The notes under the pieces: model-generated
What the model saw: only the letters and a program-made list of their open reading frames with translations
Database searches by the model: none
Told to the model about the DNA's origin: nothing
NCBI GenBank assembly: GCA_018710845.1
Contig: DVJB01000065.1
Coordinates: forward strand, 7,310 to 71,309
DNA from: Candidatus Onthomonas avicola
Lineage (GTDB): Bacteria > Bacillota > Clostridia > Oscillospirales > Oscillospiraceae
Length of the DNA: 64,000 bases
Direction: 5' to 3'
Shown here: one piece after another, positions 7,046 through 63,897 of the stretch
How the letters are laid out: each line of letters begins with the position of its first letter
Position numbering within the stretch: position 1 is the stretch's first letter
Position numbers and translations under genes: made by a program

Positions 7046-7088
7046 TCGGAAAGCCCTCCTTTCGGCGGCGAAGATAGGAAGGGGACCC

Positions 7089-7193
7089 GTAGGGGCGCAC
7101 CACGTGCGCCCGTAAAGGGGAACGGCGGTGTTTCGTGCAGGCCCCGTCGAAACATGCGTGGGCAGCACGCGGGCGCACAGGGTGCGCCCCTGC
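7089..7193. repeat. Inverted pair of GTAG-family REPs (REPIN-like doublet)
   Basis: GTAGGGGCGCACCACGTGCGCCC at 7089-7111 (+) and GCAGGGGCGCACCCTGTGCGCCC at 7171-7193 (-). Confidence 0.85.
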
Positions 7194-7290
7194 GGGGAGG
7201 CCATGGTTGAAAGCCACCTCTTCCCGCGACGGAAAAAGCCGGGCAAAGGCAGCGCCTCTGCCCGGCTTTTGCGGGAAGATTTGGTTTTGC

Positions 7291-21844: not shown

Positions 21845-21888
21845 CCCAACACCTCATTTCTCCTCAAACCGCCCATAAAATAGCGGGC

Positions 21889-22150
21889 AAGAGCGTCAAA
21901 AAGGTCTCACCGAGTTTGGCTCGAAGAGCCAAATAGAATTGCATTCATTTTTGGCACGGGCGTGTACCCCCCAGGGGGCCTTCTCTCGCCCCTGCGGGGC
22001 GATTCACCTTGACCGGGCCAAAAATACTGATAGTCTCGCAAGTGTGCGGCTTTTTGGAACAAAAAGCCGTGCGCGCAGCGGGACTGCGAACTCCGAGCAA
22101 ATGCTTGCATTTGCTCGGAAGGCTGTCAAAAAATATTTTTTGACAGCCGC
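21889..22150 (+). mobile_element. Structured MITE-like element, copy 1
   Basis: Highly similar to 41700-41961 (inverted) and 63693-63897; ends in a 28-bp perfect palindrome GGCTGTCAAAAAATATTTTTTGACAGCC; no clean TSD. Confidence 0.8.
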
Positions 22151-22185
22151 ACCGCCCCGAAAGGGGCGGGAAGCCGGCGCATCTT

Positions 22186-32776: not shown

Positions 32777-32792
32777 TTGCCAGGAAATTGAC

Positions 32793-33433
32793 GTAGGGGC
32801 GCACCCTGTGCGCCCGTCCGGAAAAGCGCCCGTTGAGGGTATGGCGGTATTCAAAAGAGGTGCACGGTACGCCCCTCATCCGACGCGGCTGACGCCGCGC
32901 CACCTTCCCCCAGCGGGGGAAGGCTTTTTGTCCAGCGCGGCCCCATGCCTTCCCCCTGGGGGGGAAGGTGCCCCTGCAGGGGGCGGATGAGGGGGCGAAG
33001 GCCGCGCCCGCCTGGGAAACGCGCCTGTCAACGCGGGCGCACGATGTGCGCCCCTACGGGTGTCCATTTCATGGGAGATGCGGCGCAGATATGCCAAAGA
33101 TGGCAATTTTCCATCCAATCGTAGGGGCGCGCCCTGCGCGCCCGTTGAGGGTATGGCGGTGCACGGTACGCCCCTCATCCGACGCGGCTGACGCCGCGCC
33201 ACCTTCCCCCAGAGGGGGAAGGCTTTTTCTCCGGCACGGCCCCATGCCTTCCCCCTGGGGGGAAGGTGCCCCGCAGGGGCGGATGAGGGGCGAAGGCCGC
33301 GCCCGCCTGGAAAATGCATCCATCCCCGCGGGCGCACAAGGTGCGCCCCTACAAGGGCCCCCAAAACCTGCCTTCCCCCTGGGGGGGAAGGTGCCCTCGC
33401 AGGGGGCGGATGAGGGGGCGAAGGCCGCGCCTG
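32793..33433. repeat. Cluster of composite REP elements: two full REP-B-B-REP units (32793-33057, 33121-33352) plus a solo B half (about 33369-33433)
   Basis: GTAG REPs at 32793(+), 33035-33057(-), 33121(+), 33330-33352(-) enclosing inverted CCCCTCATCCG...CTTCCCC/GGGGAAG halves. Confidence 0.9.
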
Positions 33434-33472
33434 CCTAAAGCCGTGCCCACTCCCACAGACGAACAGACAAAT

Positions 33473-41630: not shown

Positions 41631-41690
41631 AACGCCGCCCGCGCATCCGGGAAATCCTGTCATCAGTATTCCCCGGGCGCGGGCGGCGTT
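41631..41690. terminator. Long hairpin adjacent to the MITE insertion site
   Basis: AACGCCGCCCGCGC...GCGCGGGCGGCGTT 14-bp perfect outer stem. Confidence 0.6.
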
Positions 41691-41699
41691 ATGCGTTTT

Positions 41700-41961
41700 G
41701 AGGCTGTCAAAAAATACTTTTTTGACAGCCTTTCGCGCAAATGCAAGCATTTGCGCGAGTTTGCAGTCCTCCCACGCGCACGGATTTTTGTTCCAAAAAT
41801 CCGTACACTCGTCGGACTATCAGTATTTTTGGCCCGGTCAAGGTGAATCGCCCCGCAGGGGCGAGAGAAGGCCCCCTGGGGGGTACATGCCCGTGCCAAA
41901 AATGAATTAAATTCCATTTGGCTCTTCGAGCCAAACTCGGTGAGACCTTTTCGACAGACTG
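41700..41961 (-). mobile_element. Structured MITE-like element, copy 2, with target-site duplication
   Basis: 8-bp direct repeat TGCGTTTT at 41692-41699 and 41962-41969; 14-bp imperfect TIRs GAGGCTGTCAAAAA / CAGTCTGTCGAAAA (11/14). Confidence 0.88.
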
Positions 41962-41974
41962 TGCGTTTTTCCGC

Positions 41975-55159: not shown

Positions 55160-55725
55160 AGATATTTCCCTTTCGCAAAAGTCGGGCCAGGCATCTGCGG
55201 CGCTGCCGCCGCACTGTCCGCCGGATAATAACGATCCTCTTTCCATCTCAGCGGATTGGTGTCAATATAGCGCCAAATCCGCTGAAAATCCGATTCATCT
55301 CGCACAATATGGTCGTAGTAAGACTTCTGCCAAACAGGATAACCGATATGCTTGGTCACAGCTCCCTTGGTCTGCTTGACAATACGGGAGACCGTAGGGG
55401 CGCACCTCGTGCGCCCGCCGTGCGCCTGAAGCGTTATCAGCATGTGGACGTGATTCGGCATAATGACATATCGCTCCAGGACGGTCGATGGATAACAGAC
55501 GGGAATGCGCTCCACCGCCGTTTTGACCGCTTCGCCGGCTGCGGTAAGGGAAAATGGGGCTGTGGGCGCGCAGGCTGCCTCCCCTGCGGGCGCACACGGT
55601 GCGCCCCTACAGGTATCCCAAAACAGACAGACTCTGTCCTTCGTACAAAAGGTAATGAAATAGCAGCCGTTTTGGCTATAATCCCACTCTTTGAGGCGGA
55701 TTCTCTTTCGCTTGGGCTGTTCCAT
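55156..55725 (-). CDS. REP-associated tyrosine transposase (RAYT/TnpA-REP, HUH Y1)
   Basis: RKRIRLKEWDYS, YFITFCT, MPNHVH (HUH), WQKSYYDHIVRD, YIDTNP. Confidence 0.92.
   Translation of the reverse strand: MEQPKRKRIRLKEWDYSQNGCYFITFCTKDRVCLFWDTCRGAPCAPAGEAACAPTAPFSLTAAGEAVKTAVERIPVCYPSTVLERYVIMPNHVHMLITLQAHGGRTRCAPTVSRIVKQTKGAVTKHIGYPVWQKSYYDHIVRDESDFQRIWRYIDTNPLRWKEDRYYPADSAAAAPQMPGPTFAKGKYL
55394..55416 (+). repeat. GTAG REP inside the RAYT coding sequence
   Basis: GTAGGGGCGCACCTCGTGCGCCC; translates as GRTRCAPT. Confidence 0.9.
55588..55610 (-). repeat. GTAG REP inside the RAYT coding sequence
   Basis: GTAGGGGCGCACCGTGTGCGCCC; translates as CRGAPCAP. Confidence 0.9.
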
Positions 55726-57934: not shown

Positions 57935-57984
57935 GGGGTGGCGGTTGCCAGGAAAATGCGGTACGGATTCTGTTCCAGGATGCC

Positions 57985-58213
57985 GTAGGGGCGCACCTCG
58001 TGCGCCCGCGTCAGAAGGCGCGGCCTTCGCCCCCTCATCCGCCCCCTCCGGGGGCACCTTCCCCCCAGGGGGAAGGCATGGGGCTGTGCTGGACCAAAAC
58101 GCCTTCCCCCCCCCCGGGGGGAAGGTGGCGCGGCGACAGCCGCGACGGATGAGGGGAACCCCGGCCATTTCAAAATCGTCCCATCATCGCGGGCGTACAC
58201 GGTGCGCCCCTAC
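57985..58213 (-). repeat. Composite REP-B-B-REP element (inverted copy of the 33-kb units)
   Basis: REPs at 57985-58007(+) and 58191-58213(-); internal halves and spacer match 32872-32995 in reverse complement. Confidence 0.88.
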
Positions 58214-58239
58214 GGATGCTGCGCCCCATAACAACAAAA

Positions 58240-63676: not shown

Positions 63677-63692
63677 CAGGTGGAGATAGAGC

Positions 63693-63897
63693 AGACGGGC
63701 CGAAAAGGTCTCACCGAGTTTGGCGCAAAGCGCCAAATAAAGTCCAATTTATTTTTGGCACGGGCATGTACCGGGCCAAAAATACTGATAGTCCCGCAAG
63801 TGTGCGACCGGAGGGAGTGCGCGCAGCGGGACTGCAAACTCGCGCAAATGCTTGCATTTGCGCGAAAGGCTGTCAAAAATACTTTTTTGACAGCCGC
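63693..63897 (+). mobile_element. Structured MITE-like element, copy 3 (internally deleted)
   Basis: Same motif order as copies 1 and 2, but the central ~50-bp hairpin block is missing and one hairpin is shortened. Confidence 0.8.

Follow-up and report, generated by a model that had tools for sequence, protein, structure and literature searches.

The repeats in the window (the whole stretch of 64,000 nucleotides analysed here, C46:7310-71309) are three copies of a modular, multi-hairpin element of 200-300 bp. From sequence comparison it is very probable that this element (family A) and its sister family B derive from or parasitise IS1182-family ISs, and that both are non-autonomous, hairpin-targeting MITEs mobilised in trans. 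Target choice is defined by structure, and the duplication produced upon insertion ends at the feet of the target stem. The genome to which the window belongs (G000) is a draft of 2.39 Mb in 72 contigs with 63% G+C. The three copies and the features adjoining them are listed below in window coordinates.

21867-21887, no strand: target hairpin of copy 1, left duplicate, AACCGCCCATAAAATAGCGGG, loop diverged
21888-22150, plus strand: MITE copy 1, family A, 263 bp, with the 46-nt module M1
22151-22170, no strand: target hairpin of copy 1, right duplicate, ACCGCCCCGAAAGGGGCGGG, identical to the empty-site form
41633-41688, minus strand: terminator-like hairpin, 3 nt off copy 2, 12-bp arms CGCCGCCCGCGC / GCGCGGGCGGCG
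41692-41699, no strand: target-site duplication of copy 2, first 8 bp, TGCGTTTT
41700-41961, minus strand: MITE copy 2, family A, 262 bp, with module M1
41962-41969, no strand: target-site duplication of copy 2, second 8 bp, TGCGTTTT
63692-63897, plus strand: MITE copy 3, family A, 206 bp, short form without the GGATTTTTGGAACAAAAATCC hairpin

All three copies of the MITE family that had been predicted for these 64 kb are real, and the sequence claims made about them check out. Copy 2 carries the exact 8-bp target-site duplication and the imperfect TIRs ascribed to it (GAGGCTGTCAAAAAA versus CAGTCTGTCGAAAAG, 11/15 match), and the adjoining hairpin is present with arms of 12 bp. The three quoted pairs of stem variants that differ by paired substitutions were all found, and all copies have the ends GGCTGTCAAAAA..TTTTTTGACAGCC. 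Copy 1, whose termini read CAAGAGCGTCAAAAAGG ... TTTTTTGACAGCCGC, is located between the genes of an Orn/Lys/Arg decarboxylase and a c-di-AMP receptor (DarA-like) and is antisense to both. Copy 2 lies in sense orientation between the genes of an HtrA-like protease and a CBS protein; it was inserted at the foot of the hairpin at 41633-41688 without spanning it, and this hairpin is also kept in the sister genomes G034 and G032. Copy 3 occupies the space between the stop codon of proB (amino-acid kinase, ProB-like) and the ribosome-binding site of the gene that follows, and its duplication is only degenerate (approximately 7 bp; GATAGAG / CATAAAG). The neighbours named in the original prediction for copies 1 and 2, and ProB upstream of copy 3, match these assignments.

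A blastn search with the three copies returned about 74 loci of 150-300 bp in the 2.39 Mb of G000, i.e. approximately one per 32 kb, and the density in the window (three in 64 kb) is close to the genome average. Around 20 contigs of G000 stop inside a MITE copy (e.g. C18, C21, C22, C28, C36 and C4; further C41, C42, C5, C60, C63-C66, C70, C71 and C9). Because contigs end in this way, the copy counts are minimum values and probably fall short of the true number; the repeat is a main cause of the fragmentation of the G000 assembly.

The small, multi-copy MITEs contain no conserved ORF, and modules of 46 and 42 nt together with 10-nt alternatives break any frame. Individual copies are mosaics with three optional or alternative parts: module M1 (46 nt, CCCCCCAGGGGG..CCCCTGCGGGG), which resides inside the loop of hairpin H2; the hairpin GGATTTTTGGAACAAAAATCC, which alternates with two shorter segments; and the optional module M2 (42 nt, GCGCCCGAGCCGCCAACGGCGGCG..). 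M1 and M2 were also considered as free-standing repeats and rejected as such, with M1 occurring 21 times and M2 16 times inside MITEs and a single M2 copy outside. The position of M1 differs slightly between families A and B, and in G000 it is always inside MITEs. The TIRs (CAGACTGTCGAAAAAG versus the reverse complement of the right end, GAGGCTGTCAAAAAAG) are conserved across copies. Family B comprises approximately 15 copies of 240-330 bp with the left terminus and the architecture of family A. Its right end (GAGCGTGTCGAC..GTCGACACGC) and its body differ, and it likewise duplicates hairpins. Examples are the following.

C10:1004-1245, C29:78945-79185 and C36:1206-1444: family B elements on G000 contigs outside the window

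Other repeats in the window are found at 7082-7206, 32786-33436, 55387-55623 and 57978-58226. They consist of GTAG-type REPs (GGGCGCAC..GTGCGCCCCTAC) and of a hairpin family with CCCCCTGGGGGG/CCCCTGCAGGGG, and are unrelated to the MITE termini. In copy 2, M1 lies at 41830-41880, and its motif order resembles that of the 'B-half' hairpin family (e.g. 32946-33013).

All MITEs are intergenic and sit mainly at terminator hairpins. According to a crude GC3-based gene call, convergent neighbours are commonest (18/39), followed by co-oriented ones (14/39), and both orientations of the element occur. The expectation that the copies lie between co-oriented genes in both relative orientations thus applies to copies 1 (antisense) and 2 (sense) but only to this minority genome-wide; between co-oriented genes the MITE is antisense in ten cases versus four in sense. 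With respect to the T-tracts of the terminators there was no consistent bias in MITE orientation, many of the targets being bidirectional terminators. A search of Rfam 15 with copy 1 and its flanks gave chance-level scores only (15-18 bits versus gathering scores of 80-270).

Target-site duplications were tallied for 51 complete elements of families A and B with usable flanks, taken from G000 and from loci of G032 and G034. In 34 of them a whole, locus-specific, GC-rich hairpin of 21-45 bp is duplicated (copies aligned with 40-nt flanks). These hairpin repeats abut the element ends with gaps of 0-3 nt, and their predicted fold leaves 0-3 unpaired end bases. Several other elements are flanked by repeats of 7-10 bp (e.g. 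CTTCACA, AGTTTTC, CAACCAAGAG, CAATTCC and the TGCGTTTT of copy 2), some of which sit at the foot of a hairpin; about one quarter have no clear duplication. The 8-bp duplication noticed at copy 2 is therefore genuine yet represents a minority mode, and the signature of the family, insertion at a hairpin with duplication of the whole hairpin, had been missed. Where the hairpin pairs are gapless, both members are identical in 11 of 30 cases. Loci with a perfect duplication include G000 C10:31481-31684, C5:29087-29344 and C22:15552-15803. In one nested arrangement (G000 C55:10694-11197) a family A element has inserted into the hairpin at the end of a family B element, and this hairpin is duplicated.

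When the two members of a duplicated hairpin pair are compared, differences are four times as frequent in loops (13%) as in stems (3.1%; Fisher p 5e-6), which could be due to relaxed selection on loops or could be the footprint of gap repair over a folded template. An automated outgroup comparison covered four loci; in three outgroup cases (copy 1, C36 and C9) it is the hairpin copy adjoining the CAG.. left end that has changed. At C42:23464 both hairpin copies have a loop that is inverted relative to the sister species.

For 24 loci, the flanks were joined with one copy of the repeat retained, and these constructs were searched in ten genomes of the genus. At least 14 of them align without interruption to a single region of G034 or G032; identity is 90-96% for most and around 80% for a few. 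The site of copy 1 is empty in G034 (L083) and in G032. In G034 it reads TCCTCAAACCGCCCCGAAAGGGGCGGGAAGCC, with a single ACCGCCCCGAAAGGGGCGGG between the same flanks, and in G000 AACCGCCCATAAAATAGCGGG is followed by the element and then by ACCGCCCCGAAAGGGGCGGG. Base-level comparison likewise revealed one hairpin in the sister species versus two in G000 at C4:26460, C9, C10 and C36. The site of copy 3 is empty in G032 (L036) and G034 (L084). For copy 2 a clean empty site was not found in these two genomes: G032 differs beyond the hairpin, and G034 is occupied by an ortholog (L086/L087) with the same 8-bp duplication. As this ortholog is without M1, the module must have been gained or lost within copies that were already inserted. 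The proposed check of copy number and empty sites thus came out in favour of mobility, with about 74 loci and with empty sites in sister species; the insertions occurred after the split from the sister species and are polymorphic between species. When an exact family A 20-mer was searched in 185,579 representative genomes, two other species contained it (CASDSM01, 'uncultured Eubacteriales', and CAYWUA01, 'uncultured Oscillospiraceae'), and the only further matches were three single chance hits. Diverged relatives of family A are present in three more genomes of the genus.

The relationship to IS1182 is indicated by the termini. Those of the MITEs (CAGACTGTCGAAAAAG ... CTTTTTTGACAGCCTC) are of the IS1182-clade type CAGNCTGTC(G/A)AAAAA, and those of full-length IS1182-family elements in the same genus, family and order read CAGNCTGTCGAAAAA ... 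TTTTTCGACAGNCTG. A G000 transposase fragment and a full-length relative from G020 were used as queries, and elements were detected in 28 of 401 genomes of the order. Seventeen complete ISs of 1.44-1.60 kb have the ends CAGNCTGTC(G/A)AA(A/G)AA ... TT(C/T)TT(C/T)GACAGNCTG, and the left 20 nt of the MITE match one of them (in L105) at 19 of 20 positions. The family assignment by way of the TIRs that had been suggested therefore leads to IS1182 (NF033551). An origin of the MITE interior from IS1182 sequence was considered and rejected, there being no similarity beyond the terminal 15-20 nt.

Both flanks were available for 13 ISs. In nine of these a whole hairpin of 18-34 bp is duplicated perfectly and without a gap; three of the nine are copies of a single IS that occupies three sites in one closed genome, and each site has a hairpin of its own. 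The remaining four comprise one with a diverged hairpin pair and three full-length ISs with unlike hairpins at their two ends; the latter three speak against the explanation favoured here. As far as can be judged from the sequences, the MITEs behave upon insertion exactly like their presumed parent ISs. From these relatives we infer mobilisation in trans by an IS1182-type transposase, and the idea of a non-autonomous element with IS1182-type ends served by a DDE transposase in trans is supported by empty sites, termini and covariation alike.

In the ISs (L098-L127), CAGNCTGTCG is directly followed by a hairpin with arms AAAAAG..loop..CTTTTT, so that both element ends carry an inward-facing, terminator-like structure. 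This subterminal hairpin makes structured ends a trait of the family. At L009 (G020:C35), positions ~890-1100, a tRNA 3' end precedes a terminator hairpin, after which several short IS1182-type termini are clustered (CAGTTTGTCAAAAAAGG.., CAGGCTTTCAAAGAAC..); this hairpin is also found directly next to the full-length IS of L003. This suggests either repeated hits on one type of terminator or carry-over of a flanking hairpin.

G000 itself contains a remnant of an IS1182 transposase at C29:60714-61565 (NF033551 'IS1182 family transposase', E 1e-62; DUF772 and DDE_Tnp_1). The region C29:60700-61720, truncated at the 5' side and internally, is the sole trace of an IS1182-family transposase in this genome; its intact right end TTCTTTAACAGTCTG abuts a hairpin followed by a T-run. 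A search of G000 with PF13751 (DDE_Tnp_1_6) gave no match and one with PF05598 a single truncated remnant. No intact cognate transposase was found in G000, nor in G032 and G034 at E<=1e-20, and a search of G000 for additional TIR-core sites bracketing a full IS yielded only family B elements and two chance matches. Draft and MAG assemblies often drop IS copies. The MITE family may now be stranded in its three carrier genomes, or the IS may have dropped out of the draft assemblies.

Covariation of the stems was assessed in 23 distinct copies of the basic form, for which RNAalifold returned a structure with seven helices. In the alignment 99.7% of the cells are paired, and nine pairs have changed on both sides. 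Shuffled controls gave 4.1 +/- 1.1 double-changed pairs, none of 500 reaching nine, and slid controls at most one. The claimed compensatory changes are thus well beyond both types of control. The principal variants are as follows.

H1: GGCTC/GAGCC, GGCCC/GGGCC, GGCGC/GCGCC
H2: GGC..GCC, CGG..CCG; GGG..CCC in family B
H4: CGCGC/GCGCG, CGAGC/GCTCG, CCAAGC/GCTTGG, CGCAC/GTGCG
Long-range helix: AGTCTCGC..GCGAGACT, AGTCCCGC..GCGGGACT

All haplotypes shared by two or more copies (six of H4 and three of H1) are perfect Watson-Crick stems, and the single-copy haplotypes of H1 and H4 are mismatched or contain G-T, with one exception; this comparison is based on two stems and small numbers, and a single-copy variant may belong to an unsampled subfamily. 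The difference implies that intact stems matter for propagation and that decay sets in after insertion. It points to selection within the transposing lineage as what probably keeps the stems, and not to a function of host RNA.

Two other explanations of the stems have to be weighed against selection in the transposing lineage. One is that they are perfected by the mutation mechanism itself, quasi-palindrome template switching or gene conversion between copies turning one-sided changes into apparent compensatory pairs. Most stems are indeed near-perfect palindromes with short loops, the classic substrate of templated mutation. There is a double change in a single copy (TTTGACTC / AAGTCAAA, G000 C43:124696), one target hairpin underwent a loop inversion, and the presence of M1 in copy 2 and its absence from the G034 ortholog attest to exchange or indels after insertion. 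However, such a process should also repair single-copy mismatches, most of which remain in H1 and H4, so that the uncompensated variants argue against efficient correction in situ. Moreover, the long-range helix AGTCYCGC ... GCGRGACT covaries although its halves are approximately 45 nt apart, a distance less favourable for hairpin-templated repair. Upkeep by mutation is therefore considered unlikely, and stem maintenance by repeated conversion, one of the two options offered in the original prediction, does not agree with single-copy variants that stay mismatched while shared ones are all perfect.

The other is that the MITE is a structured RNA module which the host retains, for instance as a small RNA, as a stabiliser of 3' UTRs or as a site of RNase III cleavage or processing; the covariation would then reflect selection on RNA at each locus. 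The covariation is strong, and elements sited at terminators would be co-transcribed as 3' UTRs. In addition, the top strand folds better than the bottom strand in every one of the 23 copies (-97 kcal/mol as against -84 kcal/mol), and helix 5 needs three G-U pairs that are workable on one strand only, a bias that a purely double-strand, DNA-level explanation does not predict. We do not read this bias as evidence for a functional RNA because the elements are oriented both ways relative to the adjacent genes. A host function at the individual loci is further opposed by the uncompensated stem mutations of single copies, the lack of an Rfam match, the restriction of the exact 20-mer to two other species and the polymorphism of the insertions between sister species. 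We regard a host RNA as quite improbable, and the second option offered beforehand, an RNA module of operons, is not borne out by elements that occur in three species, in both orientations and mostly at convergent terminators.

Membership of the MITEs in a REP/RAYT system, with an HUH single-strand transposase instead of a DDE transposon, is highly improbable: the window does encode a RAYT together with the GTAG-type REP hairpins and the second hairpin family, whose motif order M1 resembles, and the MITEs are hairpin-rich, but REP/RAYT elements have neither target duplications nor TIRs, whereas the MITEs have IS1182-type TIRs, duplications at most copies, termini unrelated to the REP sequences, and full-length IS1182 elements that behave like them. 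It is just as improbable that the hairpins on either side belong to the element or arose by recombination between tandem terminators: the nearly identical hairpin abutting two IS ends in G020 (L003, L009) and the three ISs with unlike hairpins would agree with it, but the hairpin sequence differs at every locus, sister empty sites have exactly one hairpin between identical flanks, and identical gapless pairs occur.

In the preferred explanation, mobilisation by an IS1182 transposase, a DDE enzyme of this type acting in trans would recognise the shape of DNA (an extruded cruciform or a hairpin) and not its sequence. It would join the two 3' ends of the element to the two strands where the stem has its 5' feet, points that would lie near each other in an extruded cruciform, and gap repair would then copy the entire stem-loop. 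With ordinary duplex DNA as target, this enzyme would give a stagger of 7-10 bp. Both the state of the target (cruciform or single strand) and the polarity of strand transfer are proposals. Insertions would be nearly harmless because both flanks keep a terminator hairpin, which would explain the high copy number; near-neutral insertion would also fit the intergenic setting with its predominance of convergent neighbours. The internal hairpins would be kept since only copies with intact stems go on transposing, with neutral decay after insertion.

A tentative extension, which we consider possible but less probable than not, is that the transposase reads DNA geometry at both partners and that the structure of the target, not the enzyme, sets the length of the duplication. 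Folded hairpins would then be needed inside or next to the element ends, a need suggested by the hairpin that follows CAGNCTGTCG in the ISs and by the make-up of the MITE as a string of covarying hairpins, and an extruded stem-loop would be chosen as target and joined at its 5' feet. If this were true, duplications of 7-10 bp would be expected on plain duplex and of 18-45 bp on hairpins, and the loop differences between hairpin copies would in part be the footprint of gap repair across a folded template.

Direct repeats of IS1182-family elements range up to approximately 60 bp. In Clostridium botulinum, the insertion sites of ISCbo5 (IS1182 family) are terminator hairpins that surround the IS; how long the duplications are is not described at base level in the main text of that study (Skarin et al. 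2011, PMC3098183). The MITEs thus resemble ISCbo5 and the ISBma2-like elements of C. botulinum group III and C. novyi-NT, as far as these are described there, in their link to the DDE IS1182 family, in the use of terminator hairpins and in being intergenic, high-copy and polymorphic, between strains in that case and between species in the present one (PMC3098183). Unlike ISCbo5, which is described as autonomous and of approximately 1.5 kb, they are gene-less, modular, multi-hairpin elements of 200-300 bp for which no intact transposase was found. Hairpin or terminator targets chosen by structure, with no sequence consensus, are likewise known for IS1272 and TnSha1 of staphylococci, also of the IS1182 family, and here again the MITEs are similar (PMC5678879, PMC4923244). 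With IS1272 the target hairpin is lost or replaced, and no duplication remains; pathway b in the model of Wan et al., in which the 3' ends join at the 5' feet of the stem-loop, predicts that the entire stem-loop is duplicated (PMC5678879, PMC4923244). The polarity observed here is opposite to that of IS1272, the hairpin being duplicated in 34/51 MITEs and 9/13 related ISs.

Outside this family, IS1630 of Mycoplasma fermentans (IS30 family), described by Calcutt and co-workers in 1999, reportedly targets and duplicates inverted repeats of variable length and sequence; it differs from the MITEs in its transposase family and in being autonomous. Pneumococcal BOX and RUP, neisserial Correia and enterobacterial ERIC repeats are also small, abundant, intergenic, modular and folding, and are often co-transcribed; some repeats of this type are MITEs with TIRs and short, fixed duplications (e.g. 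TA for Correia). In contrast to the present families they are without hairpin-length duplications, and they have no sequence similarity to them and different or unknown transposases. The principle of hairpin duplication is already on record for the IS1182 family, and what is added here is a new, abundant example and not a new principle.

The MITEs and ISs together constitute a data set of more than 40 natural insertions in which duplication length equals hairpin length, with joined-flank matches at no fewer than 14 loci; five insertions were compared base by base with the empty site. It is suited to testing structure-directed targeting by IS1182 transposases, for which experiments have so far been confined to the hairpin-deleting IS1272. 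For the host, the repeat places 200-300 nt of structured sequence and a second terminator hairpin behind dozens of genes, and predictions of terminators and 3' UTRs in these gut Oscillospiraceae should take the MITE into account.
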